Virus record (IMG/VR): IMGVR_UViG_3300043080_000590
Coordinates: 322,386 to 379,029 of that record
Length of the DNA stretch: 56,644 nt
Reading direction: 5' to 3' (one strand)
From: a virus
Lineage: Duplodnaviria; Heunggongvirae; Uroviricota; Caudoviricetes
Positions 20,071 to 56,262 of the stretch are shown one piece after another. How positions within the stretch are numbered: position 1 is the first letter of the stretch; each line of letters opens with the position of its first letter. The translations under genes were made by a program, and so were the position numbers. The notes under the pieces were generated by a model, which was not told the DNA's origin, did not search any database, and saw only the letters and a list, made by a program, of their open reading frames with translations.

Positions 20071-20242
20071 TTTATAAATAATTATATTTAAATCTCTTAG
20101 CAAAAAGAAGGTATTTTATCTTCTTTTTGCTTTTTTATTGATAGAATTGACGTATAAATTTTATTGACGGCTATATTATTAAAAAGAATAACTAAATAAT
20201 AAGAATAAAATTTTTATTAAATTAGTTCTTATTAATGGGGGA

Positions 20243-36134: not shown

Positions 36135-36158
36135 AGAGGGTGTTTTCCCTCTTTTTTA

Positions 36159-36187
36159 TTGACAAAATATAAAAAATGTGGTATAAT
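36159..36187 (+). promoter_or_regulatory. Sigma-A-type promoter
   Basis: TTGACA-17-TATAAT. Confidence 0.8.
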
Positions 36188-36218
36188 ATACTTAAATAAT
36201 TTAAAGAGGTGATTACAA

Positions 36219-37442: not shown

Positions 37443-37449
37443 GATTAAA

Positions 37450-38763: not shown

Positions 38764-38776
38764 AAAGAGTGATAAA

Positions 38777-40030
38777 ATGATTTTGCAACTAGGATATGAT
38801 ATAAAATATGATGAAAAGGCAAATATGCTACCATACAATTTTTTTATGGTAGATAAAATAAATAAGGATAAAATAATAAATAATGAATTATTACAATTAT
38901 TAAATAAATCATTTTTTCTTTATTTACCTTTAATGAAAACTGTTTTTTCCGAACAGAGAGTAAAATATGTTCTTGAAAATTTAAAATTTGAAGATGGTGT
39001 TTTTTGTTCTGTAAGTGATAATAAAATAAATGAGTATGATGGAGAATATATAAAAGGTTTTAAAAAAAATAAAGTATATTTTCATAGCATCTCTAATATT
39101 TATAATTCATTACCTGAAAATGATATTATCAGAAAACAGACTTTAACTTCTTTAATTAATATTTGTAATAATTGGGAAGTTGAAAAAATAATAGAATATA
39201 TTTTTAAAAATAATAAAAATATACAAAAAGATACAAGACAATTATTTCTTTTTGTAAAGTTGTTTGAAGACTATAATACAATATTAAAGGACTATGTTTT
39301 AGATTACTTTAATAAGTTTTATTCTAATTTTAATAAAAACTTTCCTTACGATAATATGGAGTGTCAAATTATTAGTCTTTTATTATCTTTATTAGTTATT
39401 GATGAAGAACGTGTTTTTTTAAGAGCGTTAAAGAATAGGATGTTTGCATTTAATTTCTTTTGTGAAAACAAAAAATTTGATGGGGTATTCTATAACTACA
39501 ATATGTTTTTTTCAATAGATGGATATTTAACAGTATTAAGTATCTATGCAAATATGTATTTGGTTATGGACACTGAAAGTACACATCATATAATGCAATA
39601 TATGAAAGTTAAGATATATAACATAGCATTTAACTTCAACAATCCTATGCGTATTATAAATTTAGCGGTAGATAAAAGTGCTTTTACAAAATTAATAAAT
39701 GATAGCTATTTTTTAAAGAAATATGATGAACCATCTTTAAAGATGTTAAAAAAACTTTATGAAAATTTCAATGAGTTGGAATTTAATAATTATTTTAGTA
39801 AAAAGTTTTTAACACAAGATGCACAAGAAAAATTAGTTCTAAATGCACTTAAGCTTTTCAAACCTATTTTTACTGACATCGAAATGGAAAAGATGTTTGT
39901 AAAAAAATTAAAAGCAAAGAGTGTTAGTAGTGAACAGTTAGAAAGAGTATTAAATGATTATGTTTTTACTTTTGAAAAGAACTATAAATACTGTTTAAAA
40001 CTTTTAGAAAGGAAGAAGAATAATGCTTGA
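38777..40030 (+). CDS. Helical paralog family member (type A2)
   Basis: Collinear with 36219. Confidence 0.7.
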   Translation: MILQLGYDIKYDEKANMLPYNFFMVDKINKDKIINNELLQLLNKSFFLYLPLMKTVFSEQRVKYVLENLKFEDGVFCSVSDNKINEYDGEYIKGFKKNKVYFHSISNIYNSLPENDIIRKQTLTSLINICNNWEVEKIIEYIFKNNKNIQKDTRQLFLFVKLFEDYNTILKDYVLDYFNKFYSNFNKNFPYDNMECQIISLLLSLLVIDEERVFLRALKNRMFAFNFFCENKKFDGVFYNYNMFFSIDGYLTVLSIYANMYLVMDTESTHHIMQYMKVKIYNIAFNFNNPMRIINLAVDKSAFTKLINDSYFLKKYDEPSLKMLKKLYENFNELEFNNYFSKKFLTQDAQEKLVLNALKLFKPIFTDIEMEKMFVKKLKAKSVSSEQLERVLNDYVFTFEKNYKYCLKLLERKKNNA

Positions 40031-41354
40031 TTTAACTATTCCTATAAGTGATGGTTATAACATTATAACAATAGATTTAAATAATTCTAATTATACTATA
40101 ATATGTTGTGATGATGAAAAAGGTTTCTATTTAAAAGATATGCCACCAATAACTTATATGTTAAATGATATAGAAATGGTAAATAATAATAAATATGCTA
40201 ATATAGATAAGTTGTTAAACAATGATTTCTTTAGCTATATGTTTTTATTTGCAGAACCTTTTAATAAAAAACTTTCTAAACATATTTTAAAGAATATGCA
40301 CTTTTCTCCATATATTTTTTTACCAGTTTGTAGAATGTTCGATTTAAAAGATATACGGAGAGTGTTTTATGATGGTATGATGGATTTTTGTTGTTTGAAA
40401 ATAACAAGATTATGGAATAATGAGTATAATGAGTTGTGTTTTGACAAAAAAACGCAAGAATTATTAACTATTATCATCAATAAAATGCAGTGGCTTTTTC
40501 AAATGTCCGCTGATGAAATTGTTACGTATGTATTAAAAAATAACAATAATATTCAAATAGACGAACTTGAACTTAAAAATTTTGTTTTTATTTTTAATAA
40601 ATACTTTGTGGCTAATGACGAAAACAAGAATTATATAATCAATCTTTTCAATAAATGTTGTAATAATATTAAAAAGGCATTTCCTGCGTGTAAAAGTTCA
40701 GGTATAGAAGATTATATATCTATAATGTTAATGATTTATGAAGAAGATAAATTACTAAAACAATTAGAGAATGATTATGTTTTATTTTCATTTTTAAAAA
40801 ATGAGCAAAGATTGGCTTTTTACAAAGAATATCCTCAATTCTTTTCAGCCAGAGGGTATTTAAAATTAGTAAAAATGGAAAAATCTTTAAGAGAAAAAAT
40901 AGAAGTTGATAAAAAGTATAGCTATATGAAAATGTATCTTGAAGAATATTCGGTTATAAGTCCTTCTAATATTATTAATGAAATTGCTCATAATAATTCT
41001 TTGAAATACTTTAATCAATTTATGTTGCAAATGGAAAGGATAAATTCAAAAGAAGAAGTGGATATTGTGAAAGGATTATTAAAGGATTTTGGAATATTGA
41101 GATTCTTAAAATACAATAAGAAAAAATCTAATGATGGTTGGCGTAAAATTCATATTTCAAATATGCTTATCGCATTATTAAGTTTGTTTAATTGTGCAAT
41201 TGATGAAAAAATGGAAAATAAAATTCTTGATGAATTAAGTGATTCGTATTATGACCTTAAAATCTTTACTCATATCGGTAAAAATTACACTTGGAAAAGT
41301 ATTAAAACGCAAAAATTTTATAAACATATTCTTATGGCTAAGAAAATAACTTAA
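40023..41354 (+). CDS. Helical paralog family member (type B2)
   Basis: Collinear with 37450. Confidence 0.7.
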   Translation: MLDLTIPISDGYNIITIDLNNSNYTIICCDDEKGFYLKDMPPITYMLNDIEMVNNNKYANIDKLLNNDFFSYMFLFAEPFNKKLSKHILKNMHFSPYIFLPVCRMFDLKDIRRVFYDGMMDFCCLKITRLWNNEYNELCFDKKTQELLTIIINKMQWLFQMSADEIVTYVLKNNNNIQIDELELKNFVFIFNKYFVANDENKNYIINLFNKCCNNIKKAFPACKSSGIEDYISIMLMIYEEDKLLKQLENDYVLFSFLKNEQRLAFYKEYPQFFSARGYLKLVKMEKSLREKIEVDKKYSYMKMYLEEYSVISPSNIINEIAHNNSLKYFNQFMLQMERINSKEEVDIVKGLLKDFGILRFLKYNKKKSNDGWRKIHISNMLIALLSLFNCAIDEKMENKILDELSDSYYDLKIFTHIGKNYTWKSIKTQKFYKHILMAKKIT

Positions 41355-41372
41355 TAGAAAAGGGGTTAAAAA

Positions 41373-42458
41373 ATGGATGTACGTAATATTATAAATAAAA
41401 AAATACACTCTTTGGAAGAAATAAAATATTTTACAGCGAATTATGATTTTTTTAATGAATTAAATATTCATATTCCAAAATGTTCTTTTAGTGAAGAAGA
41501 ATTAAAATTTATAGTAAGCAATTTAAATTCAAGACAGTTGGAGTTGAGAATTGTTCATGCTCATTTAGAAGATGATGATAATAATTTTTCGTATGCTATG
41601 CAAACATTTGTGGAGAAATTTAAATATAGATATAATACTAATATTGATTTTAAAGAGCTTGTAGAGTGTATGGTGGATAATAATATAAATCTGTATGACA
41701 AGTACACAGCAATGAATTTTATCATAGACTTCTATGATTTTTTATCTGCTGAGTATTTAAATAAAATTGTCAAAAAAATTTTGATAAACTTTAGCGAATT
41801 TACAGATTATAAATATCTTAAATTTATACTTATTTTAAAAGACGAAGATTTTGATTTTCTATTAAAACATAACGCACGGTTGCAATCGTTTTGTAATGAT
41901 GTAGCATTTTTTGAAATATTAAAATCAATTTCAAAAGGTTTGCATTATGGTGAAACATATAGAGATATAAATGTGAGGACAATATTTAGACTTTTTGAGT
42001 ATTCAAAGAAACATTATTCTGTTTCTTCCAATAAAGATGTATATCTTTATTTGTTAGACAGAGTTATGTATGCACAAGATGCTGAAATTTTGAAGAAGAA
42101 TCATAAAGAAGTATTTAAGAAAATTGGGCAAGTAATATCTTTGTCATTAGAGTATCAAAGAATGGGAGATATAATGTTTTTTAAAAATAATTTTTTCTTG
42201 AATAATGAATGTTATAGTTCCAAAAGAAGAAATGAAAAAAGAACGTGTTTTTATAGATTTTTAAATATTATGAGTGAATTTTTATCAGAAAAAGATGAAC
42301 TTAAAATACTTAAATCTTTAAGATACAAATACTGGGGTTATGACAATTATGAAATAAAAGAATTATATAAAAATTGTAAGTTTAGTCATGCTGCTTCAAC
42401 AAAGTATTTGAGAACACAAGTTTTTTTACTTAAATTAAATGTAGATGCGAATGTTTAA
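41373..42458 (+). CDS. Helical paralog family member
   Basis: C-terminal RFLNIMSEFLSEKDE...YLRTQVFLLKL. Confidence 0.65.
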   Translation: MDVRNIINKKIHSLEEIKYFTANYDFFNELNIHIPKCSFSEEELKFIVSNLNSRQLELRIVHAHLEDDDNNFSYAMQTFVEKFKYRYNTNIDFKELVECMVDNNINLYDKYTAMNFIIDFYDFLSAEYLNKIVKKILINFSEFTDYKYLKFILILKDEDFDFLLKHNARLQSFCNDVAFFEILKSISKGLHYGETYRDINVRTIFRLFEYSKKHYSVSSNKDVYLYLLDRVMYAQDAEILKKNHKEVFKKIGQVISLSLEYQRMGDIMFFKNNFFLNNECYSSKRRNEKRTCFYRFLNIMSEFLSEKDELKILKSLRYKYWGYDNYEIKELYKNCKFSHAASTKYLRTQVFLLKLNVDANV

Positions 42459-42504
42459 AAATCCTTTATTTTTTTGTATAAGAAAAAAGATAGGAGGATT
42501 CATT

Positions 42505-45048
42505 ATGAAGAATTTTGTACATTTGCATACACATTCTGTGTTTTCATTATTAGATGGATTAACAAAAGTAGAAGATATGGTGGATAAAACACTTAAGCTT
42601 GAATTGCCTGCTTCTTGTATAACAGACCACGGAAATATGTATTCTTTTGTAAATCATTTTAAATATGCAGAAGAAAATGGTCAAAAACCAATAGCAGGCT
42701 TTGAAGCTTATGTTGTAAATGATTTAACGGTAAAAAATAAAGACGAAAAAAGAGAGCATTTAGTATTATTAGCTAAGAATAATGATGGCTATAAACAAAT
42801 GTCTAAAATATGTAGCATTGGTGCTACGCAAGGTATGTATTACAGACCACGTATTGATGACAAAATAATGCAAGAAGTTGGCACTGAGAATCTTATTGCC
42901 AGTTCTGCTTGTTTTCTTATGAATACCGATGTAATAACAAAACGTGGTATAAAACCTATACAAAATGTCACAGAAGAAGATTATGTTCTTACGCACTTAG
43001 GAAGATATAAAAAAGTTAATAAATCATTCAGTATGTTGTACAGCGATGATATTTATAATATACGTTCAAATAGTTTTCCTATCAATTGCACCAAAGACCA
43101 TAAATTCTTAGTCGTTAAAGATAATAATGTTGAATGGAAGGAAGCACAAGAATTAACTGAAAATGATTATTTGCTTCAAGTTGTAGAAGATACTGTTGAT
43201 AAGTTTGAAGAATTAGATGTATCTTTTCTTAAAAAACAAGGAAAGTTAAAAAGTTATACAATAAAACTCACTAATGAATTTTTAGAGTTTTTGGCAATAT
43301 ATTGTGTAATGGGAATAGATTCAAGTGCTGCCGTATCTTTTATTGTTGATTGTGAAAATATTTTATTAATAAATAAAATTACAACGGAATTAGAAAATTT
43401 AGTAAATATTCCATTTACAATAGTAAACAACTTAGAAAAAAAACAAGTAGCAATAACTATTTGTAGTGAAGAAGTAAGTAGTTTATTAAGGTATTTGATG
43501 GGAAGTAATGTTATTAGTAATTCTAATTCTAAAATGCTCCCAGATATTATTAAATGGTTATCTTTTGATAAACAATTGTTTTTTTTAAAAGGGTTTATAA
43601 TAAATAATAGTTCTTTTGAAGATGGTAAAGTAAGTGTGGTATTATATTCTAAACAGTTATATTATGATATATCTCATATGCTTGCTAGATGTAACGTATC
43701 ACATACGGTTGAAAGTCAAAATAGATATATTGATGACTTAGAGTTTTTACATAATGCTACTTTTACTGTAACTATTGAGGACGAAGATTTTATAAACTTT
43801 TTATACAATGGTGAAAGTTTTAGATTAAAGCATTTTTTTGAAGTTGATGGAGTAAAATATATAAAGAATAAAATCCAATCAATAACTGCAAATTGGGCAG
43901 AATTAAACGTATATTGTTTGGAAGTAGATGAAGATTCTTCTTTTGTAGCTAATAATGTAGTTACACATAATTGTCTTGCAGGTAGAATACCTAGGTGCTT
44001 GCTAAAAGACGATATAGAAAAGGCTGAATACTGGTGTAAGCATTACGCTCAAATGTTTAAAAATAGCTTTTATTTGGAAATACAACCTACTGAGATACCC
44101 TCACAGGTAAAAGTAAATAAAGGGTTGATTGAACTAAGTAAAAAATTGGGCATACCTTTAATAGCAAGTACGGATGCACATTATTTAAATAAAGAGGATA
44201 AAGAAACTCACGATGTGTTGCTTTGCTTGCAGACTAAAGATTTATTAAGTAATCCTAATAGATGGACTTTTGAAGGTAACAGCTATTATATAATGTCTTA
44301 TGAGGAAATAATAGACGCTTTTAAAAAGAATGGTCATGAAGAATTAGACCAAGATGCTGTATTAGAAGCAATTCATAATACAGTTGATGTAGCTAAACAA
44401 TGTAATGTTCATATTGATTTTGGTAAACATTATTTGCCTAAAATAGAACCACCTAAAGATGATGACAATTATAATAAGCAAGTAGAAAAAAAATTAAAAA
44501 GAGATAAAAATTTTAAAAGTGATGATGCTTCATATTTAAGATATTTATGTTTGCAAGGATTAAAAAGGAAATTGCCAGACCTTGACACAAACCTTGAAAA
44601 AAGAAAAATCTATTTAGATAGATTAAATCACGAATTAGAAGTAATTGAAACAATGGGTTTCCCATCTTACTTCTTAATAGTTGCAGATTATATTAACTAT
44701 GCAGATAAAGTTGCTAAAATGGGCGTAGGTCCTGGTAGAGGTTGCTTTACTCCTGATAATTTAGTTAATACTGAAAATAGAGGGTTAGTAAAAATTGCAG
44801 ATGTAATTGTAAATGATTTGATAAAAGGTCATGATGAAAAAACTCATAAAGTAATAAATACTTTAAATTATGATTGTGATGAAGAAGTCTTGCAAATATT
44901 TTCAGAAGATGGTAAATCACTTACACTAACAAAAGACCATAAATTATTTGCTATCAAAAAAGAGGATTTTGATAAAGGGATAAGAACTCCTCAGTGGTAT
45001 GGAGCTGATGAATTAAACGAAAATGACTATATAGCCGAATTAGAATAA
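42505..45048 (+). CDS. dnaE: DNA polymerase III alpha subunit, N-terminal gene (PHP domain, cis-intein, ends in split intein N-half)
   Basis: FVHLHTHSVFSLLDG, ITDHGN, STDAHY, ELEVIETMGFPSYFLIVADYI, GPGRG; RBS AGGAGG before ATG 42505. Confidence 0.93.
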   Translation: MKNFVHLHTHSVFSLLDGLTKVEDMVDKTLKLELPASCITDHGNMYSFVNHFKYAEENGQKPIAGFEAYVVNDLTVKNKDEKREHLVLLAKNNDGYKQMSKICSIGATQGMYYRPRIDDKIMQEVGTENLIASSACFLMNTDVITKRGIKPIQNVTEEDYVLTHLGRYKKVNKSFSMLYSDDIYNIRSNSFPINCTKDHKFLVVKDNNVEWKEAQELTENDYLLQVVEDTVDKFEELDVSFLKKQGKLKSYTIKLTNEFLEFLAIYCVMGIDSSAAVSFIVDCENILLINKITTELENLVNIPFTIVNNLEKKQVAITICSEEVSSLLRYLMGSNVISNSNSKMLPDIIKWLSFDKQLFFLKGFIINNSSFEDGKVSVVLYSKQLYYDISHMLARCNVSHTVESQNRYIDDLEFLHNATFTVTIEDEDFINFLYNGESFRLKHFFEVDGVKYIKNKIQSITANWAELNVYCLEVDEDSSFVANNVVTHNCLAGRIPRCLLKDDIEKAEYWCKHYAQMFKNSFYLEIQPTEIPSQVKVNKGLIELSKKLGIPLIASTDAHYLNKEDKETHDVLLCLQTKDLLSNPNRWTFEGNSYYIMSYEEIIDAFKKNGHEELDQDAVLEAIHNTVDVAKQCNVHIDFGKHYLPKIEPPKDDDNYNKQVEKKLKRDKNFKSDDASYLRYLCLQGLKRKLPDLDTNLEKRKIYLDRLNHELEVIETMGFPSYFLIVADYINYADKVAKMGVGPGRGCFTPDNLVNTENRGLVKIADVIVNDLIKGHDEKTHKVINTLNYDCDEEVLQIFSEDGKSLTLTKDHKLFAIKKEDFDKGIRTPQWYGADELNENDYIAELE
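42910..43971 (+). mobile_element. Cis-splicing intein (354 aa) with degenerate LAGLIDADG domain
   Basis: SSA|CFLMNTDV...TKDHKF...VYCLEVDEDSSFVANNVVTHN|CLAG. Confidence 0.92.
44743..45045 (+). mobile_element. Split intein N-half (101 aa)
   Basis: GRG|CFTPDNLV...LTKDHKLF...ADELNENDYIAELE then stop; acidic. Confidence 0.9.
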
Positions 45049-45073
45049 GGTACTCCTTGGGGAGTACCTTTTT
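45047..45073. terminator. Strong bidirectional terminator after dnaE-N
   Basis: AAGGTACTCC/GGAGTACCTT perfect stem plus T run. Confidence 0.85.
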
Positions 45074-46061
45074 ATGTTAGTTTTATTAACATAGCAAGAT
45101 TTTTTAATGTCTTATTGTTATTTTTTTTTGCCAATGATAATAATTGTTTTTTTCTATGTGTCCTTATATTTTCAAAACTATTATTTGTTTCATTAAGTAA
45201 TCTATCAATACAAATATTTTTTTGTCGGTCTGTAAGAATATTTTCAAAAAATAAAATCATACTTATATAATAAAAGTAATCATTATGTTTTTCTACAATA
45301 ATATCTTTTACACAATCAGAAAAATCTACATTCTCATATTCCCTTGTATGAAACAAGTATAAATTTATTCTTTTAAAATAAATGTTTAAAATTCTTTTTC
45401 TGAATTTATCAGGAACATTCCAATTAATTAAACATTCTTTTATTTCTGAATTTTTCATACCACAAAATATATTACAAATAAATATTTCATCATTTTTAAA
45501 CTCAGTATATTTTAAAAACATATCATATAAATCATATTCTTTTATAATATGCGGTGTGTTATTATTCTTTTTTATACCATAAGTTGAAAAGAAATTTAAT
45601 ATATTTGTTCTACTTTTTATTTTTTCTTCAAGTGTTAATACTTTTATTTTATTTATAATAAGATAAGCAAGTTTTTGTACAAAATTTTCAAACAGCTCTT
45701 TTTTCATATACCAAGCCGATAATGCAGACATACAAAAATTACACTCATAGATACTTAATTCATTAATCTTATTTAATAAAAAGTCAAAAAAAGAATTTTC
45801 TGAAATAATATGATTTTTTCCAAATAATTCTACATCAAAATAGAGTTGATAATAAACTTCCATTTGTTCAAAGAGTTTAAGTAAATCTTTTCCACTTATA
45901 TATTTGTTTAGTAATTTACAAAATTCTTCTTCTGGCAATTTTTCCACCAATGATAATAAATAGCGTTTTTTATGAAAATTCATATTATCTTGAATAATAT
46001 TATTTAATTCTTCCTTAGTATATATTTTTTTTAAGTTATTTTTATCATCCATTACAAACAC
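45072..46061 (-). CDS. Helical paralog family member
   Basis: C-terminus TLKNLAMLIKLT; same size and composition as the family. Confidence 0.6.
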   Translation of the reverse strand: MFVMDDKNNLKKIYTKEELNNIIQDNMNFHKKRYLLSLVEKLPEEEFCKLLNKYISGKDLLKLFEQMEVYYQLYFDVELFGKNHIISENSFFDFLLNKINELSIYECNFCMSALSAWYMKKELFENFVQKLAYLIINKIKVLTLEEKIKSRTNILNFFSTYGIKKNNNTPHIIKEYDLYDMFLKYTEFKNDEIFICNIFCGMKNSEIKECLINWNVPDKFRKRILNIYFKRINLYLFHTREYENVDFSDCVKDIIVEKHNDYFYYISMILFFENILTDRQKNICIDRLLNETNNSFENIRTHRKKQLLSLAKKNNNKTLKNLAMLIKLT

Positions 46062-46182
46062 CCTTCATAATAACAGTTAAAAGGCTGTATTTTTATCATA
46101 TAAGGGTTTGTTTGATTTGTGGTATAATTCTTTGCCTAAAAATAAAAACGTCTTATAATTGAAAATACAGCCATTATTTAGT

Positions 46183-47253
46183 TTAACCTATTTTTGAAGC
46201 AACAACATTTCTTATATGCTTCATATCAACAAGTGTTATATCACATCTTCTTTTTGTGAAAGATTCAATGTATTGTAATTCTGCAACATTATTACAAAGA
46301 ATAGCTTTATCAAGAATCCTTTTAAGGTAAAGGTTAAAAGCGTATCTAGGAACTCTATCACCTAAGTTTACAATCAAGTTAATGCACATAATGTAATTAC
46401 AGTTATTAAGACAACCACTACGTTCCAATGCCTTATAAATAAGACTTTTTTCTTGTGAAGTAAGATGAGAAGCATCTGCTTTTCTAAAAGGCGTACAAGA
46501 AAGATATCTTATAATTAAATTGATATCAGTAGTTGGAAGTAAAATTGATGTACTTGGCATCTTTGCTAAGAAATTATCATTTACATCAGCAGGGTTTCTT
46601 AAAACCATATTAACAAGTCTTGGCATATTATGAAAAATGTAATTAACATCCTTATCATCAAGAAGTAATATGAAATTCTTTATCTTTGCTTCGCTATTAG
46701 TATCTATACCATTTTGTGTACATTCTGCAAGGAACAAGTCAATAACCTGTATTAATATATTTCTGCTCATATATTCATTGCAGTAAGTAATTGTATCGCA
46801 AAGGTTTTCTACCTGATTTTCTTTTTTGCAATAGAAAACTATGAAACTATATATAGCTTTCCAAACTTGTTCTGTGTCCTGATTTACAATTCTTTCAAGT
46901 GCTTCAATAAAAGCGATACCATTATTCCTTAAAATATTATTAAGTTCTGTATAACTAAGCTTATTTGCAATTAAGTTATAAACCTGAGTGCCAGTAATAA
47001 CTTGAACTTTTTCAAGTGTGTTTGCAATGATATATTCGTTATTTGTGAACAATTCATTCAAAGCACTTGAAAGTTCATTATTAGTTGTTGCTGAATTTAT
47101 TTTATTAAGAATGGTTACATCATATTCACTAATTACTGAATAAGAGTTTTTTGGTTCTACTACATTAGTAGTAGTTTCGTCATAATCATTATAAGCTGTG
47201 TTGTGATTTACAAGGCTCTTAAAATTACTTACTATTTTCTTAAAGTTCAACAT
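46183..47253 (-). CDS. Helical protein, possible distant family member
   Basis: 356-aa ORF with RBS AAGGAGG and promoter at 47305-47333. Confidence 0.6.
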   Translation of the reverse strand: MLNFKKIVSNFKSLVNHNTAYNDYDETTTNVVEPKNSYSVISEYDVTILNKINSATTNNELSSALNELFTNNEYIIANTLEKVQVITGTQVYNLIANKLSYTELNNILRNNGIAFIEALERIVNQDTEQVWKAIYSFIVFYCKKENQVENLCDTITYCNEYMSRNILIQVIDLFLAECTQNGIDTNSEAKIKNFILLLDDKDVNYIFHNMPRLVNMVLRNPADVNDNFLAKMPSTSILLPTTDINLIIRYLSCTPFRKADASHLTSQEKSLIYKALERSGCLNNCNYIMCINLIVNLGDRVPRYAFNLYLKRILDKAILCNNVAELQYIESFTKRRCDITLVDMKHIRNVVASKIG

Positions 47254-47304
47254 ATTTATATCCTCCTTAAAAGTGTGTTTGTGTTTTCTTTATTTTATGT
47301 TTAT

Positions 47305-47456
47305 ATTATACTATGTTTTTTATAATTTGTCAAGCTTTTTTTCTAAAAAAATGAAATATTTTTAAATTTGTAACACAAAAAGAGTTATAATTATAATTTT
47401 ACAGTTACAACTTTTTCAAAAAAAGTATTGACAAAACATAAAAAAAGTAGTATAAT
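47305..47456. promoter_or_regulatory. Divergent sigma-A-type promoter pair flanking the palindromic site at 47360-47401
   Basis: TTGACA-17-TATAAT at 47333-47305 (-) and 47428-47456 (+). Confidence 0.75.
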
Positions 47457-47517
47457 ATAATCACAGAAATAAAAAAGTACACATTACACAATATTAAATA
47501 ATAAAGGAGGATTTTAT

Positions 47518-48003
47518 ATGTATGGTATTTTTTTAAAGAATGAAGATGGCGAAGAACTTAATTATAGGACACTTAAAACATATTTAAACGCAGCTAAACC
47601 TAAAAACCTTTACAATTATGTTATGGAAAAGACAAATGGTTTTGTATTCTATTCTATATCATTTTATGCAGATGTTTTTAAACAAGGTAAGGTTGATAAG
47701 CGTAAAATGAGAAAAGATTTACTGGATATGTTGATAATTGGTAACACTCTTAATATTGACATAAATAATATGAACCTTAGAATAAATGGAGAAGAAGATT
47801 TTGTTAAGCTGTATAAATCTAATTGTTTAACTCTTGAAGATATAACAAGAATTTATGAAGCAGTTGAAAAATACTATCCTGATTATTACTATCGTTTGTG
47901 GGAAAGATTAAGATTTGAAAATAAGGAAGATGCAGAACAGTTTATTTCTATTGTACAAGATTATTGTACTTATCCTTTGTATGCAAAAGGTAATTGTTAT
48001 TAA
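47518..48003 (+). CDS. Hypothetical protein
   Basis: RBS AAGGAGG and consensus promoter. Confidence 0.7.
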   Translation: MYGIFLKNEDGEELNYRTLKTYLNAAKPKNLYNYVMEKTNGFVFYSISFYADVFKQGKVDKRKMRKDLLDMLIIGNTLNIDINNMNLRINGEEDFVKLYKSNCLTLEDITRIYEAVEKYYPDYYYRLWERLRFENKEDAEQFISIVQDYCTYPLYAKGNCY

Positions 48004-48183
48004 GAATAAATCAAGAAAAAGGGATTATAAAAAATCCCTTTTTTTATGAAATATTTTTCTATTTTCTTGACAAATAGCTATGTTTTGTTGTATAATAATA
48101 TCATAATTAAATTAAACTATCAATTTACTTTATTATTAAAAAGGATGATAAAAACTAATTTTATAAAAACAGGAGCGATGAAA

Positions 48184-49047
48184 ATGAATACAATTAACAT
48201 TGATGAAGTTACGGACGGACAAGTAGTTGTTATAGATGCCATTTTAACAAACTTAAATTTAGTAAAAGCAAAAAATAATAGTTTATTTATTTCAGGAACA
48301 GCTTCAAATAGTAATATGAGTATACCTATAAAAATTTGGAATACTGATGAAGCTACCCTCAATATATTAAAAGATATAAAATTCATTTCTTTGTTAGGAA
48401 CAGTAAGTGTTTATTTGGGAGCAAAAAGTCTTATAGTTTCAAAATATAAAAAAATAAAAGATTATCAATTAAGTGATTTTATCCCTACATATAAAATAAC
48501 AGAGGATAAAAAACAATTTGTTTCTGATGTTATTGATAGTATAGAAACAGAAAACTATAAAAAACTTTTATCCGAACTAATAACAAAGGAATATTATAAA
48601 TTATCTTGTTCAATTTTTAAGTATAATAAACATAATGGTAACTTTGAATACATATATGATTTACTTAACACAGCATACGCATTGTTAAATAATAGTTCTG
48701 AATTGTATTCAAATATAAACAAAGAAGCAGTATTAACTGCTTTATTACTTTGTAATATTGGTAGTCTTGAAGCACAAAAATATGATGAATATTTAATTGC
48801 AGAAGATTTAACAAAGACGGGGAAATTATTAACAATACCTATTTTATCTTTAATGAAAATTATAGAAACTTGTAATAAGTTAGATATAGATATAAAATCA
48901 GAAGATATAATTTCATTAATATCTTTAATTGTAAGTAATAATAATGGAAAGCCTGCCAATTTAAAAGATGTACAGTTCTTCAGACAAATAGTCTATCTTG
49001 TAGAAAGTTTTTGTAAAATGGAAACTTCAATTTCAGATGTAAATTAA
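48184..49047 (+). CDS. YhaM-like OB+HD protein with degenerate HD motifs
   Basis: Collinear with 49672; LLCNIG for LHDIG, SNNNG for SHHG; start inferred from AGGAG RBS (track start 48046). Confidence 0.7.
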   Translation: MNTINIDEVTDGQVVVIDAILTNLNLVKAKNNSLFISGTASNSNMSIPIKIWNTDEATLNILKDIKFISLLGTVSVYLGAKSLIVSKYKKIKDYQLSDFIPTYKITEDKKQFVSDVIDSIETENYKKLLSELITKEYYKLSCSIFKYNKHNGNFEYIYDLLNTAYALLNNSSELYSNINKEAVLTALLLCNIGSLEAQKYDEYLIAEDLTKTGKLLTIPILSLMKIIETCNKLDIDIKSEDIISLISLIVSNNNGKPANLKDVQFFRQIVYLVESFCKMETSISDVN

Positions 49048-49070
49048 AAAAGAGAGGGTTAATCCCTCTC

Positions 49071-49352
49071 TTATTCATCATCAATATTATTATGTAATTC
49101 ATCCATCATTTCGAAAAAAGTTGGTATTTTTTCTACCTGCTCTATTTTTTCTTCTTTGTTAGTATAAGCTATTATCTTACAAGCAAAAATAAAACATATA
49201 ACGCTTGCAGCAAATACTATTAAAGACATTGATATTCCTAGTTCTAAAAATCCATAACAACTGGCAATAGCCAAAAACAAAAAAGAACTAAAACTTCCTA
49301 TTGTACCTGCAATAATCATTGTTATTGCATCTCCTGCTTCGTATTTTTTCAT
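49071..49352 (-). CDS. Small membrane protein (2 TM)
   Basis: Two hydrophobic helices. Confidence 0.65.
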   Translation of the reverse strand: MKKYEAGDAITMIIAGTIGSFSSFLFLAIASCYGFLELGISMSLIVFAASVICFIFACKIIAYTNKEEKIEQVEKIPTFFEMMDELHNNIDDE

Positions 49353-49525
49353 GTTTCTACCTCCGTGTTCAAATATAACAGAATCTTATCTAAACAAGTA
49401 GTTGTGTTTATTGTACAGTCTTTTGTTATTATATCATAGCAAGCACAATGTTCACAAATTAACTTGGTTAGTGTTGTTGCCATTTCTGTAACGCTCATAT
49501 TCTGTATGCTTTCGTAATTTGTCAT
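49349..49525 (-). CDS. Small Cys-rich phage protein (58 aa, not in ORF track)
   Basis: MTNYESIQNMSVTEMA...CEHCAC...; promoter at 49572-49544; stop overlaps the next ATG. Confidence 0.65.
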   Translation of the reverse strand: MTNYESIQNMSVTEMATTLTKLICEHCACYDIITKDCTINTTTCLDKILLYLNTEVET

Positions 49526-49671
49526 TTTTTTCTATCCTTTCACATTATACTACATTTTTTAACTTTTGTCAACAAATATATTTTTTATAAATATTATTTA
49601 ATAAAACTTATCCTTTCTTATATAATAGAAAAAATAAAAAAATAAAAAATTTCAGAAAGGAAGTTTAAATT

Positions 49672-50655
49672 ATGGCAAAATTAAATACGTTTGAAATATC
49701 TAAATTACAAAAAGGTGATACAGGAATTGTTGACCTTATTATAGGTAAAGTTGAGTTGAAGGAAAGAAAAAACAATGGTGGTTTATTTATAGATGGTTAT
49801 GGCTCTAATACAAATATTCCACAAGTTAGATTTAAGTGTTGGGATGAAATTACAGAAACTATGTTTAATGAGGTATTTAAAAAGATAGGTGCTATAAGAA
49901 TTAAATATCGCTGTGATGAATTTAATGGAGAAAAATATTTGAATGTTTTTCAATATGAAGATATAACAAATGAAGCTTGTGATATTGATGGTCTTATTCC
50001 ACAGAGTAAAATATCTGCTGAAAACTTAAAGAAGTATTTTCATAGTGTTGTTAGCAAAATGCAGACAGAAAGTTATCAAGCAATAATAAATGAATTATTA
50101 GTAGATGAGTTTTTTGAAATGGGTGCTGCACTTTCTTGTCATCATAACAGAAGGGGTGGTTTAGCGGAACACACTTATCAAGTATTAAGTGCTGCTAAAT
50201 CTATAATTGAAAGAGATAGGTCTGAGGTTTACAATATAATAAACACAGATTTATTATATGCTGGTTGTATATTACACGATATAGGTAAATTAAAAGAACT
50301 TCACGCAAATTGCTTTGGAATAATTGATGAGTATACAACAATAGGAAAAACACAAGGACATATAAACATTGGTGTGACTATGATAAATGAATGTTGTGAT
50401 AAATTAGGCATTGATAAGTATTCAAAAGAAATTATGTTATTAAATCATTTGATGCTTTCACATCACGGTAAAGAAGAATATGGAAGTCCTGTTAAACCTA
50501 AAACATATGAAGCTATGTTGTTAAATATATATGATAATTTAAGTGCTAAAGCAGATGCGGCAAAAAATGTAATAGATAAGACGGCGAATGGTGATTGGAG
50601 TAGTAAAGTTTTTGCATTAGATAATGTACAATTATTTAATCATATATCAGAATAA
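49672..50655 (+). CDS. yhaM: YhaM/CBF-like 3'-5' exonuclease (OB + HD)
   Basis: HHNRRGGLAEHT, LHDIGK, GHI, LSHHG, YDNLSAK. Confidence 0.85.
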   Translation: MAKLNTFEISKLQKGDTGIVDLIIGKVELKERKNNGGLFIDGYGSNTNIPQVRFKCWDEITETMFNEVFKKIGAIRIKYRCDEFNGEKYLNVFQYEDITNEACDIDGLIPQSKISAENLKKYFHSVVSKMQTESYQAIINELLVDEFFEMGAALSCHHNRRGGLAEHTYQVLSAAKSIIERDRSEVYNIINTDLLYAGCILHDIGKLKELHANCFGIIDEYTTIGKTQGHINIGVTMINECCDKLGIDKYSKEIMLLNHLMLSHHGKEEYGSPVKPKTYEAMLLNIYDNLSAKADAAKNVIDKTANGDWSSKVFALDNVQLFNHISE

Positions 50656-50688
50656 AAAGTAGGGTGGATTTAAATATCCACCCTTTTC

Positions 50689-51072
50689 TTAAACTGAATC
50701 ATTTTCTATATTATATGTGTTTTGTAAATAAGTTAGATGTTCTATACATTTAGTTAATGCTTCTAATTCTGTATTTCCATATCCATATATATTTATTTTT
50801 GCATTGTCAACTGTCGTTATAATGTACTCACACTTCCAAATATAATTTTCTATTTCTGTATATGCGTTTTTACAATTAACTGATATTTTGTATTCTTCAT
50901 CTGCCTGCGACCAAGGTGAATTAATAAATAAAGCCCATTGTTGCATATCTTCTTCTGATAATTTTTCTTCGTTTTCATAATAGAAATTTTTAAAATCATC
51001 AGTATAATAGTTTTCTTTTTTCATATAGTCAAAACTACCTGCTAAATACTTTTTCATTATCTCATCTCCCAT
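50689..51072 (-). CDS. Hypothetical protein
   Basis: ORF downstream of the minus-strand promoter at 51105-51077. Confidence 0.6.
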   Translation of the reverse strand: MGDEIMKKYLAGSFDYMKKENYYTDDFKNFYYENEEKLSEEDMQQWALFINSPWSQADEEYKISVNCKNAYTEIENYIWKCEYIITTVDNAKINIYGYGNTELEALTKCIEHLTYLQNTYNIENDSV

Positions 51073-51159
51073 TTTTATTATATCATATATTGCTTATATT
51101 GTCAAATTGTTTATTGACAAATAATAAAAATTATAATATAATATAGTTGAGGTGATTAT

Positions 51160-52257
51160 ATGTATCTTAGAACTTGTTTAGGTTTGGGCAATTTTATGGA
51201 AAGCAATTTAGAAACAAGTAATAATGTTGTTAATAATTTGAGTTATTTTAAAAATAAATGTATAGATATATTTACTCTTATAAATTATTCTCCAATTCCA
51301 TTAGAAGATGTTTATGATTTTTTGATACACTCCTCTTTTAATAATCTGAGTTGGTCACGCAATTGGGGAATTGATTATTATTATGTTAATGATTTCTTTA
51401 ATAGTATTCAAAAAAAGATAACACTTGTTTATATGCACGAAACAGACCATAGCTTTTATCGTAACGTTTTACAAAGAGAAAAGGCTGAGAAATGGTTCAA
51501 AAAATTTGATGAAAAATGTTTGGAAAAAGTAGGTAGAACATTTACACAGATTTTAAATGATTGTATTGCTAATATGCCATTAAACGGCACGACAAATATG
51601 CTAGTATATTATTTACTTGCTAAAATCGGACCTACATACATATCAAAAGAGAACATAATAAGATTGTTTGAAAGAATGATGGTTGTAGATGCAGATAGTA
51701 AGTTTACAAAATATAAAGAAAGTGGCTATACATTGTTTGAAGATTTCTTGGTTATTAATATTATAGAATATTTAAAAAACTATCCTGAATATTTTATCCC
51801 TTATTTAAAAAACAATAATGACAGCTTTGGCAAATACATAAGATATAGCCCAGATAAATTTAATATATTTTCTTTTGCAGAAATAATAAAGGCTAATGAT
51901 GAAATGTATGAGATATTTTCAAATAAACATTGCCAGACAGCAATTTTTTGTAAATTAGTTAAAGAAACAAATGATTTGATTATAAAGTATAAAGAAGATA
52001 TAAATAAGCTTCCTATTGAAGAAAAAGAACTTAAAAAGCATATACGAACAGGAAAAGTTGATTTGCTTGTAAAATATTTATTACTTCAAGACAACATATC
52101 GTTAGAAAGAGAAAAGAAACTTATAGAATTGCTTCTTAAATATAAAAAGACATTTACACTGGAAAAGATTCATTATGTAATTGATAATTATAATTGTGTT
52201 TATGAAGAAAATTCTCATATATTAAAAAAATATTTAATGATTTGCAAGTTAAGGTAG
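51160..52257 (+). CDS. Helical paralog family member
   Basis: C-terminus IDNYNCVYEENSHILKKYLMICKLR; promoter at 51114-51142. Confidence 0.65.
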   Translation: MYLRTCLGLGNFMESNLETSNNVVNNLSYFKNKCIDIFTLINYSPIPLEDVYDFLIHSSFNNLSWSRNWGIDYYYVNDFFNSIQKKITLVYMHETDHSFYRNVLQREKAEKWFKKFDEKCLEKVGRTFTQILNDCIANMPLNGTTNMLVYYLLAKIGPTYISKENIIRLFERMMVVDADSKFTKYKESGYTLFEDFLVINIIEYLKNYPEYFIPYLKNNNDSFGKYIRYSPDKFNIFSFAEIIKANDEMYEIFSNKHCQTAIFCKLVKETNDLIIKYKEDINKLPIEEKELKKHIRTGKVDLLVKYLLLQDNISLEREKKLIELLLKYKKTFTLEKIHYVIDNYNCVYEENSHILKKYLMICKLR

Positions 52258-52353
52258 AGTAAAATCTACCTTTTTTTATTGCAAAAAATTAAAAAAAATA
52301 TTTTTTCTTTATATATAAAGGCAAATATACAAAAAAGGAGTGTGAAAGAACAA

Positions 52354-52548
52354 ATGAAATTTACAAGAATTGTAAGAAAGAAATATCAACAGTATAAAGG
52401 TAAGGTTTATGATTTAACTGTTGAAGATAGTCATTCTTACAATATTGATAATTTAGTGGTTCATAATTCGGGTGCAGGTTCTTTAGTTTGTTATGCAACA
52501 GATATAACTAAAGTGGACCCCATTGAGTATGACCTAATTTTTGAGCGT
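52354..52548 (+). CDS. dnaE: dnaE C-terminal gene exon 1: split intein C-half (38 aa, 52354-52467) plus extein
   Basis: MKFTRIVRKK...VYDLTVEDSHSYNIDNLVVHN|SGAGSLVCY...DPIEYDLIFER. Confidence 0.92.
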
Positions 52549-52886
52549 ATGTCTGCTTAAAATGCGTTCGTTAAACTGGGTGAATTGTCGGGAAACTCCT
52601 TAGAGTTTAAGAATACTAACTTATTACAGCAATGTAGTAAGGGCAAAAAGTAATGTTGGAGATATAGTAAGTAAGTTCTTAAAATTGGACAATCCGCAGC
52701 CAAGCTTCTAAAAGCACATAAAAGTATAGAAGAAGGTTCAACGAATAGAGAGTGATAAGTGCGATAAATAATCTCTCCAAGAGTGCCCAGTGGATAATAT
52801 TCTAAGGAGTATTATCTAATGATATATTCTATACTATATGGAAACATATAGAAGTAAATGATAAACACATTTACGATAATAAAAAG
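52549..52886 (+). mobile_element. Group I intron dnaE-I1 (338 nt)
   Basis: AATCCGCAGC, GTTCAACGAATA, P7 GAATA/TATTC, U 5' site, terminal G. Confidence 0.88.
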
Positions 52887-52916
52887 TTTTTAAATAAAGA
52901 CAGAGGAAAACTGCCT
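52887..52916 (+). CDS. dnaE: dnaE 30-nt micro-exon (FLNKDRGKLP)
   Basis: Rebuilds FER-FLNKDRGKLP-DIDADF, same length as canonical FERFLNPERVSMPDID. Confidence 0.9.
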
Positions 52917-53263
52917 AAACAATATTGGGCATTAAAAGTGAACTTAAAAAGGTGTGCTTAATATTTAAGTGCTAACGGTAAAAGTTAAATAAGACTATCT
53001 ATTGAAGCCTTACAAGGAGATAATAGGTGTATGATTTATAATCATAGGTAGAATATACTTCTACAGACGAAATAACTTTCTAAGAGAGTCTAAGGTGCTT
53101 TTAAAGCATAGCTGATAATACCGTGTCTTTAATAAGATGTAACGACTATCCATTTATTTGGAGTACCATTATAAAATGGGAAGTGCTTTTATGCAAAATT
53201 GTTTATATAAAATTGTTTTGTAAAGATATAGTCTGATGTTATAGGAAACTATAAATAATAATG
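52917..53263 (+). mobile_element. Group I intron dnaE-I2 (347 nt)
   Basis: P1 UGCCU/GGGCA with U.G, P10 AAUAUU/GAUAUU, GTAACGACTA, AAGATATAGTC. Confidence 0.92.
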
Positions 53264-53724
53264 GATATTGATGCAGATTTCTGTATTTATGAAGGTGATA
53301 AAGTATTTGATTATTTAAATAATAAATATGGGAAAAATCACTGTTGTAATATTATTACTTTCCAAAGATTACAAACTAAAGCAATAATAAAAGATTTAGC
53401 AAGGGCTTTGGAAGTAGATTTTAGTGAAGTAAATAAATTTACAGCATCTATACCTGATAAAATTGATGATAAAGATGTACATATAAAAGATTTGGTTGAT
53501 AATCCTCAATTTTCTTGGTTTTTTAATAAATATCCTGTTATTAAGAAACACGCTTTAAAATTAGAGGGATTACCTAAATCAACATCTCAACATCCTGCTG
53601 GTATTGGTGTTGTACCTTGCGAAATAACTGACTTAGTACCTGTTATTCCTGCAAAGGAAACAGCGAGTGGAATGAAAACATATTTATCATCTTTTGAAAA
53701 GGAACAAACTGAACAAATGGGTGT
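53264..53724 (+). CDS. dnaE: dnaE C-terminal gene, internal exon
   Basis: DIDADF (catalytic Asp residues), KDLARAL, GLPKSTSQHPAGI. Confidence 0.9.
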
Positions 53725-55901
53725 AAACATAACTGCACCCGTAAAAGTGGGTTATATGCTGGAAACTGCTTAGAGCCTTTATGCACCTACAATATTTTGT
53801 GTTTATTGTAGTCGAAACAGTTAAAGGATTGCACAATCAGCAGGCACGATAAGGTCCGCCTCAGAGACTATGAGAATATCTCAGGTATATAATGGTGACG
53901 TTATATATCAACCCCACTAAATAGAATTTATTTCTATGAATGATATAGTCCAGACTGAATATGAATTAACATATTGTAATTCTATGTGGTAATGTCGCAC
54001 ATAGGATAATGACTGAGAAGTCCAGAACATAAGCAGAAATGACTTATGATTTATTATTAAAAGGTATATAAATTTTAAATGATATAAAATAAATAAAGAT
54101 AGTCATTCTCCCCAAATGGCTATCTTATATAAAATTAATAAATAATATTATATTCTTTTAATTTGTTTTTTACTAATTCAGGAGTTAAATCTTCATCATA
54201 TCTAACTCTAATTAAAGTTATATTGTGCTCTTTGCATAATTTATCTTTTAATTTATCTTTTTCTTGTAAATTTAAAAGACTGTTTTCTTCTTTGTTATAA
54301 AAAGAAACTTCCTTAAAATGTTGTTCACCATCATATTCTATTGCTAAATTATATTTTTCAAAATAACCGTCTAAATATAAATTGCAACTTGTTTTAGGAT
54401 TTTTTAACCATGTAAATGTTTTTTCAGTTTGAGCAATAATTTTTAACTCTTGTTCAAACAAATATATGCAATATAACCCAATATCAGAAACTGAATTTCC
54501 ATTTGTTGCAACATTTACAATATTTAATTTATCGCATATTCCTTTTATGTTGCCAAATCTATGTAAATATGTAGGTCTTGAATATTTTGTTTCTTTTTCT
54601 AAAATAACCGTATTTATAGTGCCAAACTTATTAGCCAATTCTTGCAACTCTGCTAACAATTCTTCGTCTGATACACTTGAAGCATAGTTGGGTTTTAATC
54701 CCATTTCCATTAACATATTTGAAAACGAACCAAACATATTTTCAACATTAGTTTGTGTTATATATCCATCTTTTCTTTGAATTGTTGTATTTAATTTTTC
54801 ACCATTAGCATAATATAACTTCCACATATGCTCAATAATTTCTTCTTTTGTCTTTTCTATTCTATTTCCCTTAAATAACCCTAACTCCTGTACAGCCTTA
54901 CTAAAACTGCCAAAAAGTTTTGTTACTATATGTTGTGAAATACCTGTTTTTCCATAAAACTCATTAGCTGTAAATTTTTGTTTATTGTTTTTTTCATAAA
55001 AATCAATTATTTTATTAGCAATTTCTTCTTTTGTAATATGAGAAGTTTTAGGATGGTTTACCATTTTTATTTTCATTGTTGTATTATAAAGGTCTATCTT
55101 TTTTAAAAAATTTCTAAAACTACCATATTTTTCTAAAAAAGTTTTTTTATGTATTTTTGTTTTTTGAAAAAATAATTTAGAAGTAACAGTACCTTCTTCT
55201 TTAAGTATTCGTAGTGCTTCGTTTTTACAAAACTCATCATCAAAATCTTTTATTTGTGACGGTCTAATTTTTCCTGCGTTTGATTTTTTCTTGTCATTTA
55301 TTATTTTTTGTTTATCATATAATCCTATTTCTTTTAAAAAACAAATAAAAGAATTATTAAACATTTTCATAAAAGTAGGTTTATGAAAATTTGTATATTT
55401 AAGAAATTTTTCTTTAGTTATTTCGCCTTCTTTGTTAAAAAATTCATAAGCTTTTTCTTTTGTTTCTTCTTTCGTAAAATCATATATTTTATTGCTTTTT
55501 CTTTTTTGACATTCGTATTGCTTTTTTGCTAATTTTGCTTTTGTTTCTTCTGAATGCGAAAAATGTTTATTACCTATTAAAGGGAGTTCTCTTTCGAAAT
55601 TTATATCTATAATATTTTCTTTTGAACATTCCATTAAAGCATACTTAAAGGATTTAAAATGTGTTTTAATTTCTTTTAACTTAAAATTACCCTCACATTC
55701 ATATATTTCCCTGTTAATAAAGCCATTTTTTTGATATATATATAATATATCATTTAAAATTTCTTGTTTGATTTGTGTTTCATCATTATTTTGATTCATA
55801 AATCAAACTCCTTTCTTATTTTTTATATTTGAATAAAGTTGGGGAACTTTATTCTCTTTAATATATAAAAAAAATAAGAAACAATAAATATAATATTTGG
55901 G
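53725..55901 (+). mobile_element. Group I intron dnaE-I3 (2177 nt) carrying an antisense endonuclease ORF
   Basis: P1 GGGUGU/GCACCC and P10 UAACU/GGUUA; AATCAGCAGG, TCAGAGACTA, GATATAGTC; splicing gives EQMGVVKFDIL. Confidence 0.88.
54135..55799 (-). CDS. Putative homing endonuclease: NUMOD3-like motif, about 6 helical repeats, C-terminal DUF559/Vsr-like nuclease
   Basis: HSEETKAKL; repeats ending FGSF...LG/L; LYLDGY...LAIEYDGEQHF...KDKLC...LIRV; own RBS AAGGAG. Confidence 0.8.
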   Translation of the reverse strand: MNQNNDETQIKQEILNDILYIYQKNGFINREIYECEGNFKLKEIKTHFKSFKYALMECSKENIIDINFERELPLIGNKHFSHSEETKAKLAKKQYECQKRKSNKIYDFTKEETKEKAYEFFNKEGEITKEKFLKYTNFHKPTFMKMFNNSFICFLKEIGLYDKQKIINDKKKSNAGKIRPSQIKDFDDEFCKNEALRILKEEGTVTSKLFFQKTKIHKKTFLEKYGSFRNFLKKIDLYNTTMKIKMVNHPKTSHITKEEIANKIIDFYEKNNKQKFTANEFYGKTGISQHIVTKLFGSFSKAVQELGLFKGNRIEKTKEEIIEHMWKLYYANGEKLNTTIQRKDGYITQTNVENMFGSFSNMLMEMGLKPNYASSVSDEELLAELQELANKFGTINTVILEKETKYSRPTYLHRFGNIKGICDKLNIVNVATNGNSVSDIGLYCIYLFEQELKIIAQTEKTFTWLKNPKTSCNLYLDGYFEKYNLAIEYDGEQHFKEVSFYNKEENSLLNLQEKDKLKDKLCKEHNITLIRVRYDEDLTPELVKNKLKEYNIIY

Positions 55902-56262
55902 GGTTAAATTTGACATACTTAAATTAAAAAATTGCTCTACGTTAAGAATTATGGTTAAAGAAATAAATAAGCGTTACAATTTAAATTTAACAGAAGATAA
56001 AATACCATTAGATGACAAAAAAACTTGGGATTTAATTTCAAGTGGTAAAACTTTAGGTGTATTTCAGTTCGCTTCTCCATTAGGAATAAGTACTGTAAGA
56101 AAAATGCACCCTGCAAATATTGAAGAATTAGCAGCAGCAACATCATTCATTAGACCTGGTTCATCAGGACTTGATAGTTATATGAAAGGTAAAGATGATG
56201 CTACAAAAGTTGCTAAAACTGATAAAAGATTAGATAAATGTTTAAAGTCAACATATGGAGCT
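55902..56262 (+). CDS. dnaE: dnaE C-terminal gene, internal exon
   Basis: VKFDILKL, TLGVFQFAS, IEELAAATSFIRPG, STYGA. Confidence 0.9.

Follow-up and report, generated by a model that had tools for sequence, protein, structure and literature searches.

How can a phage obtain an intact replicative polymerase when the gene for it is broken in two and the pieces lie several kilobases apart? The question is raised by a locus in a stretch of 56,644 nucleotides (hereafter the window, the whole of the DNA analysed here; G+C content 25%) from IMG/VR virus record IMGVR_UViG_3300043080_000590 (Caudoviricetes), in which DnaE, the alpha subunit of DNA polymerase III (Pol III), is encoded by an N-terminal gene, dnaE-N, and a C-terminal gene, dnaE-C, with 7.3 kb of other genes between them. 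A first-pass annotation of the window had proposed that the two products are joined by a naturally split intein, of which dnaE-N would carry the N-terminal half (IntN) and dnaE-C the C-terminal half (IntC). The record searched is a 224,405 bp IMG/VR virus, rated as about 92% complete and described as a 224-kb gut jumbo phage, and the window corresponds to its positions 72349-128992 on the reverse strand. The survey of relatives covered 120 viral-contig loci and two whole records; related loci were retrieved with alignment-based queries, whereas a single-protein query returned no relatives, and a blastn comparison with cultured phages gave no match to the locus.

The polymerase is most likely stitched together after translation from the two genes, and a probability of about 0.85 is assigned to the reading that this occurs by ordinary protein trans-splicing through a naturally split class-1 intein, which on its sequence features is probably functional. 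The features on which this reading depends are the following (colons within motifs mark splice junctions).

42445-45048, + strand, open reading frame (ORF) of dnaE-N, which opens at 42445; the ATG at 42505, behind GGAGG at 42493, is the likely true start
43972..44742, + strand, dnaE-N extein part 2, which opens the Pol III alpha catalytic domain and ends VGPGRG (positions 1-66 of the Pfam DNA_pol3_alpha profile; translation)
44743..45045, + strand, IntN, 101 residues, Cys1 ... T-K-D-H ... DYIAELE (translation; alignment; Pfam Hint E=1.1e-5)
45046..45070, + strand, TAA stop (45046-48) overlapped by a bidirectional intrinsic terminator (45047-45070; 10-bp stem, 5 GC pairs)
52335..52340, + strand, AAGGAG ribosome-binding site of the IntC-dnaE-C gene (sequence)
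52354..52467, + strand, IntC, 38 residues, MKF...GKVYDL...HSYN...VVHN (translation; alignment)
52468..52548, + strand, first C-extein exon, SGAGS...LIFER, 27 residues (Pfam DNA_pol3_alpha)

IntN begins and IntC ends exactly at positions 44743 and 52467, respectively, the two limits that the first-pass annotation had given for the break. Its description of the two ends, with dnaE-N running through GPGRG:C into an acidic IntN followed by a stop and a strong terminator, and dnaE-C opening with a basic IntC that leads through VVHN:SGAGSLV into the polymerase, agrees in full with the translation and the terminator scan. Of the residues of IntN, 22 are acidic and 12 basic (net charge -10, pI 4.6), while IntC has a net charge of +3 and a pI of 9.5, the extein residues SGAGSLV starting at 52468. 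The insertion point is the Gly:Ser bond of GPGRG:S(G/A)AGS in the catalytic domain of Pol III alpha, approximately 36 residues ahead of the catalytic DIDADF (DxD) motif, in a segment that presumably belongs to the nucleotide-contacting region of the palm. In intein-free DnaE proteins GPGRG-S(A/G)AGS is read straight through, as in the unbroken VGPGRGSAAGSLV of protein P0021, so that ligation of the two exteins would rebuild a conserved segment; the motif GPGRGSxAGS, given earlier as the conserved sequence across the junction, is accordingly found as GPGRG-SAAGS in the intein-less homologues.

All the residues expected of a class-1 intein are present, namely Cys1, the block-B Thr and His, the penultimate His and terminal Asn, and the +1 Ser. 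Cys1 is residue 767 of dnaE-N, directly after GPGRG, and both Cys767 and the block-B T829-K-D-H832 are the same in all of ten aligned DnaE-N proteins. Among 48 aligned IntC-first ORFs, G16, V18, Y19, D20, H37, N38 and S39 (the +1 Ser) do not vary, D20 of VYDL being the block F Asp. The intein halves are conserved nearly as their hosts are, IntN being 52-87% identical to its relatives as against 56-93% for the adjoining polymerase, and IntC having a mean identity of 64% as against 73% for its extein. The two halves also belong to separate genes, with the TAA and terminator after IntN and the ribosome-binding site and ATG before IntC, both of which are kept in other assemblies. Natural split inteins have an IntN of 88-105 residues and an IntC of 33-54 residues (PMC2677866), and the lengths of 101 and 38 residues observed here fall inside these ranges.

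The association of the halves was examined by complex prediction, for the N protein (residues 759-867) with the C protein (residues 1-46), an alignment being supplied for each. IntN and IntC were predicted to dock with an interaction prediction score from aligned errors (ipSAE) of 0.88 (0.87-0.89 in three runs), the best of three controls scoring 0.00; the partner had a predicted local distance difference test value of 80, and at least 90% of the contacts agreed between the runs. The mark applied to this score is reached by 58 of 80 solved complexes and by two of 110 mismatched pairs, a calibration that is approximate, own alignments having been used. The predicted contacts are tightest at the canonical split point, where the IntN tail (859-864) meets residues 3-7 of IntC. 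Since split-intein complexes have already been solved, the result is to be taken as likeness to a docked HINT fold rather than as binding. The presence and invariance of the splicing residues, the unbroken intein-less homologues and the predicted docking thus bear out the split intein that had been proposed.

Several points weigh against this reading. Both intein halves score below the curated Pfam cut-offs (25.6 as against 29.7 bits for Hint, and 25.8 as against 35.8 bits for Intein_splicing), as is expected when each half is a half-domain. The AAGGAG lies 13 nucleotides from the ATG at 52354, which is rather long, and neither the Ser at +1 nor the native exteins are informative on the rate of splicing. 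In favour of the reading, the 224-kb record yielded neither a further Pol III alpha nor any family A or family B polymerase, and the phage thus appears to need this DnaE as its sole replicative polymerase; the record is however only about 92% complete, and a further polymerase gene could sit in the missing part.

The proposed course of events is as follows. An N precursor, consisting of the PHP domain, the start of the palm and IntN, would be produced from a long operon of which its gene is the last, and a C precursor, consisting of IntC and the remainder of DnaE, from a separate message after the loss of four group I introns. The acidic IntN and the basic IntC would then form one HINT fold, in which a thioester formed at Cys1 would be attacked by the +1 Ser and the terminal Asn would cyclise. 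A normal peptide bond would thereby link the exteins, DnaE would measure about 1167 residues once two contiguous inteins had also been spliced out, and the 7.3-kb gap would be cargo gathered in an already split intein, outside the splicing machinery. Whereas the anatomy of the locus, its conservation, its homology to contiguous and to fractured alleles and the prediction of docking are results of the analysis, the association of the precursors, the chemistry of splicing and the structure of the transcripts are inferred.

A docked complex would equally be expected if the halves acted as a non-covalent clasp that holds the DnaE fragments together without splicing, as a two-chain enzyme, and the complex model supports this alternative as far as docking goes. 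A module that merely docks, however, needs none of Cys1, the T-x-x-H motif, the His-Asn pair or the +1 Ser, which are invariant across lineages down to 31-56% identity, and an unspliced HINT domain of 139 residues would sit in the conserved GRG:S segment beside the catalytic aspartates; a clasp is therefore considered unlikely. The seven intervening elements in dnaE and the incompleteness of the record might instead suggest a decaying gene, with the halves as remnants and replication carried out by a host polymerase or by one whose gene lies in the absent 8% of the genome. Against decay, all the pieces have open frames and Pfam-significant domains in the right order which sum to about 1167 residues, the exteins and intein halves are conserved in relatives, and the gene order in Bacillus phage G is identical, all of which makes decay very improbable.

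As the record is derived from a metagenome, the 7.3 kb could also have been misjoined by the assembly into a normal intein-containing dnaE. A misjoin would not, however, yield an in-frame stop and terminator exactly at the canonical split point, nor a ribosome-binding site and ATG for IntC, and the gap is without flanking direct repeats. The same ORF ends and starts recur in many independent assemblies, the exact half-proteins of this genome being recorded on 7-8 contigs, and on five other contigs, among them a complete genome with terminal repeats, the gap is 6.4-15.6 kb long. Misassembly is thus the slimmest of the chances weighed here. For each of the two exact half-proteins the longest contig measures 502,690 bp, as against the 224-kb record; the true genome may be about twice the size of the record, or that contig may be a concatemer.

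With trans-splicing retained as the preferred reading, the content of the gap can be described.

45072..52257, both strands, gap cargo of nine ORFs: 329 residues (-), 356 (-), 161 (+), 333 (+), 93 (-), 58 (-), 327 with an HD domain (+), 127 (-) and 365 (+) (ORF list)
47333(-), 47428(+), 48067(+), 49572(-), 51105(-) and 51114(+), both strands, six perfect sigma-70 promoters, TTGACA-N17/18-TATAAT (consensus scan)
52251..52272, + strand, terminator after the last cargo gene, 80 nucleotides ahead of the start of IntC (terminator scan)

The earlier count of about nine ORFs on both strands with promoters of their own is thus borne out, the ORFs being 58-365 residues long. The six promoters make up 6 of the 36 perfect TTGACA-N16-18-TATAAT sites of the genome in 3.3% of its length, and terminator-like sites are eight-fold enriched in the gap (11 as against 1.3 expected). 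These promoters and terminators point to the cargo genes as independent units, probably read by the host polymerase. Transcription of dnaE-C, judged from consensus signals alone, may come by read-through from the 51114 promoter or from a weak promoter of its own. On the other side of the gap, the following signal precedes dnaE-N.

36159..36187, + strand, perfect extended -10 sigma-70-type promoter (12/12 consensus with TG), immediately 3' of the terminator at 36133-36154

No + strand terminator was found between this promoter and 45047, and by its consensus it probably drives a unit of about 8.9 kb whose last gene is dnaE-N. The two transcripts envisaged in the first-pass annotation therefore fit the terminators and promoters, while their separate control is something that we infer.

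No homing-endonuclease family was recognised in the nine gap ORFs by Pfam, PHROGs, PADLOC or the protein atlas, in agreement with the earlier observation. The caveat is a pair of HD-domain paralogues, 48046-49047 and 49672-50655, the latter with an HD match in Pfam (E=4e-11) and a weak likeness to Cas3 HD nucleases (E about 1e-7); apart from these weak Cas3-HD-like matches, no defence-system content was detected in the gap. The two ORFs adjoining IntN are helical-repeat-like, with low model confidence. Six consecutive genes 5' of dnaE-N (window 35127-42458) are paralogues of 335-443 residues. Membership of this paralogue family for all the gap ORFs was considered and rejected, only 51160-52257, directly 5' of IntC, having its C-terminal module (E=1.2e-6 in a 15-sequence search). 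An excisable element or a programmed rearrangement was also considered and ruled out, since the 7.3-kb gap has no flanking direct repeats and there is no recombinase among the gap ORFs.

The break itself is not confined to this phage. Nine other DnaE-N proteins (488-516 residues; 49-88% identical over the region) end in ...DYIAEL(E) followed by a stop, and short IntC-first ORFs form about 80 protein clusters, 54 of which have exactly 38 residues before HN:S. The alleles found at this site are intein-free, contiguous (387-1350 nucleotides), fractured, and long-gap (6.4-15.6 kb). Contiguous inteins with homologous ends occupy the identical site in gp329 of Bacillus phage G and in about 18 viral contigs. 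The fractured forms have a gap of approximately 0.7-1.6 kb that holds either one GIY-YIG gene (locus L016) or one PD-(D/E)XK, TnsA/endonuclease-I-like gene (L025, L027 and L029). The long-gap forms comprise the window (7.3 kb), L006 (9.0 kb), L007 (7.9 kb), L014 (6.4 kb), G002 (11.3 kb, about 24 ORFs) and G001 (15.6 kb, about 30 ORFs), G001 being a complete 390,884-bp genome with terminal repeats.

A maximum likelihood tree was inferred from the extein end and the intein halves (33 rows, 235 columns), with the architecture labels taken from manual inspection of the splice junctions. The long-gap forms fall into three clades: the window with L006 and L007 (support 97/91); L014, as sister of the contiguous phage-G type (98/94); and G001 with G002 (100/100), nested within the fractured forms. 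The long-gap label requires three changes on the tree, and the starred branches force at least two, though the number of origins is approximate because the tree is short and tracks the intein, which can move between phages. On this tree, the long, variable, endonuclease-free gap is a form that arose more than once.

G001 and G002, which are near-identical to each other, have cargo in common, and none is common between clades. The window and L006 have in common only the HD protein (48046-49047 and 49672-50655 in the window; 17211-18248 in L006). As to whether the insert is syntenic in relatives, a check that the first-pass annotation had proposed, the break recurs but the content of the insert is mostly unrelated. 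In L007 (11486-12878), an ORF of 385 residues with CxxC...CxxC at its start follows IntN directly and is itself followed by a partial duplicate of IntN, which comprises its last three-quarters (residues about 25-100) without Cys1; from its sequence, the duplicate is probably the recombination scar of a cassette insertion. The gap of L006 contains a beta-clamp-like gene (DNA_pol3_beta_2, E=2.8e-6) and a DnaD/helix-turn-helix-like gene (11513-12682, 19425-20318), and replication-type genes can thus sit between the polymerase halves.

A tentative view, held with a good deal less confidence than trans-splicing itself, is that the gap is a repeatedly created cargo island, in which the conserved coding ends of IntN and IntC would serve as homology arms for cassette swaps among huge phages; the splitting would, on the same doubtful footing, let the halves of an indispensable polymerase be pushed apart cost-free. 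The three long-gap clades, the cargo that is unrelated between clades and nearly all different within them, and the IntN duplicate of L007 are compatible with such an island. If it exists, cargo placed between the halves of an essential gene would be hard to lose by simple deletion, and the early, host-type promoters may tie the assembly of the polymerase to the infection programme.

Broken genes of a related kind have been described. In phage-like metagenomic DNA, Dassa, London, Stoddard, Schueler-Furman and Pietrokovski (2009; PMC2677866) reported 'fractured genes', among them three loci for DnaE whose split inteins sit at integration points that were new. They defined such genes by one free-standing endonuclease gene between the halves, all on one strand and with spacers of 27-51 nucleotides, and they proposed that its loss could be a route to genomic uncoupling of the kind found in cyanobacteria and Nanoarchaeum. 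The present locus resembles these genes in that a replication enzyme is broken by a split intein, the halves lie in one locus in the same orientation, and the sizes and the five catalytic residues match. L016, L025, L027 and L029, with one endonuclease gene and a gap of about 1 kb, match the published definition. The window differs in its 7.3-kb gap with nine ORFs on both strands, own promoters and terminators and no recognisable homing endonuclease, and it is this arrangement of the gap that sets it apart from the published DnaE loci. With nine other genes in place of the endonuclease gene on which the definition turns, the window is not a fractured gene in the sense of PMC2677866, and its arrangement is intermediate between the two published ones, fractured and uncoupled. 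The claim of a new split intein therefore stands for an undescribed variant and does not extend to uniqueness, the variant belonging to a large family and fractured phage DnaE with split inteins having been published in 2009.

The split DnaE of cyanobacteria (Ssp PCC6803 and Npu; Wu et al. 1998 and Caspi et al. 2003, cited through PMC2677866) is alike in its Pol III alpha host, its split at the canonical endonuclease-insertion loop, its acidic IntN and basic IntC and a presumed course of capture followed by splicing. It differs, presumably, in its insertion site, and further in that its +1 residue is Cys whereas that of the phage is Ser, and in that its halves lie hundreds of kilobases apart, those of the phage being 7.3 kb apart on one strand. 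In a PDB sequence search with a contiguous relative as query, the nearest solved structures were the cyanobacterial DnaE inteins, at an E-value of about 1e-3; IntN alone gave only chance-level matches (E=0.56), and the intein of phage G gp329 gave no solved relative. With this very low sequence similarity and a presumably different site, the phage intein falls outside the cyanobacterial DnaE split-intein family (PolIII-alpha insertion point a). The low similarity suggests that it may be orthogonal to Npu and gp41-1.

Bacillus phage G (JN638751) encodes in gp329, annotated as 'DNA polymerase III; DnaE-like', an intein at the identical GPGRG:C...HN:S site with homologous ends. Further downstream it also has, after FLNP-RGKLP, the group I intron site of the window, and its genes follow in the same order as far as a metallophosphoesterase. 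The gp329 intein is however contiguous (245 residues, 735 nucleotides), and the long interruption in phage G lies elsewhere, from gp331 to gp339. In that region (L005 15413-20860), the DnaE exons gp331 and gp339, the latter starting VKFDILGL, are approximately 5 kb apart with seven genes between them (gp332-338), including a NUDIX hydrolase. The interruption lies at the site of intron 3 of the window (listed below), and a read-through tail, ...KVGYML..., is common to it and the 5' end of that intron; possible explanations of the interruption are a group I intron that is very long or split and a gene break of a second kind.

In the Pseudomonas jumbo phage MIJ3 (PMC6892783) a replicative polymerase is likewise divided by a putative split intein; there the enzyme is a family B polymerase (PolB), and the intein, which is not related to the present one, has a single HNH endonuclease gene between its halves. 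Searches of open-access papers and preprints gave no account of huge or jumbo phages in which several genes separate the halves of a split intein. What is present at the DnaE site is thus a populous, undescribed family of split inteins that uses a mechanism already known.

The remainder of dnaE is itself interrupted, as the features outside the split-intein junctions indicate.

42505..42909, + strand, dnaE-N extein part 1, the first half of the PHP domain (Pfam PHP E=1.9e-41; ribosome-binding site and start position)
42910..43971, + strand, contiguous intein 1, 354 residues, ...ASSA:C...VTHN:C, inside the PHP domain (Pfam Intein_splicing E=8.8e-23)
52549-52886, + strand, group I intron 1 (Rfam RF00028; phage G comparison)
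52887-52916, + strand, micro-exon of 30 nucleotides that encodes FLNKDRGKLP and separates introns 1 and 2 (comparison with phage G and the DnaE consensus)
52917-53263, + strand, group I intron 2 (comparison with phage G and the DnaE consensus)
53264-53722, + strand, dnaE-C exon (Pfam, translation)
53723-55902, + strand, group I intron 3 (comparison with phage G and the DnaE consensus)
54135-55799, - strand, HNH-type ORF of 554 residues within intron 3 (Pfam)
55903-56259, + strand, dnaE-C exon (Pfam, translation)
56260 onward, past the window end at 56644, + strand, group I intron 4 (comparison with phage G and the DnaE consensus)
L004 10074-11978, just past the window end, - strand, last dnaE exon with a contiguous mini-intein of 167 residues, SFNK:C...VVCN:SHA (Pfam, translation)

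Contiguous intein 1 is missing from the closest relatives, the DnaE-N proteins of 488-516 residues, and Pfam gave no match to an endonuclease family in its middle part. The ORF of dnaE-C is cut short 27 residues into its extein by a group I intron (RF00028, 60 bits); genetic code 4 had been considered for this short ORF and was ruled out, as the introns account for the stops. Matches to RF00028 of 60 and 41 bits were obtained in dnaE-C in an E-value run over 4.6 kb, while a run over the whole window at the gathering thresholds gave no Rfam matches and missed the 60-bit intron. The last dnaE exon is followed by a metallophosphoesterase gene, as in phage G. The cyanobacterial split site lies presumably next to the FNKSH motif, far downstream of GPGRG:S, and we take the contiguous mini-intein of the phage to be within a few residues of it. 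In total, dnaE is broken by one split intein, two contiguous inteins and four group I introns, and with all of these removed a DnaE of about 1167 residues, a normal size, would remain. The earlier description of two dnaE genes was thus right as to the split and understated the fragmentation, having left out the four introns and the two further inteins.

Gene callers currently label such pieces of dnaE as unrelated small ORFs. With about 80 sequence clusters, the family is a large natural source of split inteins that combine Cys1 and a +1 Ser with a short IntC of 38 residues; being remote in sequence from Npu and the other solved inteins, its members are candidates for orthogonal protein ligation. 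The alleles at this site form a natural series from intein-free through contiguous and fractured to long-gap, and the series gives a direct illustration of the final step of the published gene-breaking model, one not observed before, in which the halves are uncoupled and still in one locus. A huge phage can thus depend on three layers of splicing for its sole replicative polymerase, namely four group I introns, two cis-inteins and one trans-intein.

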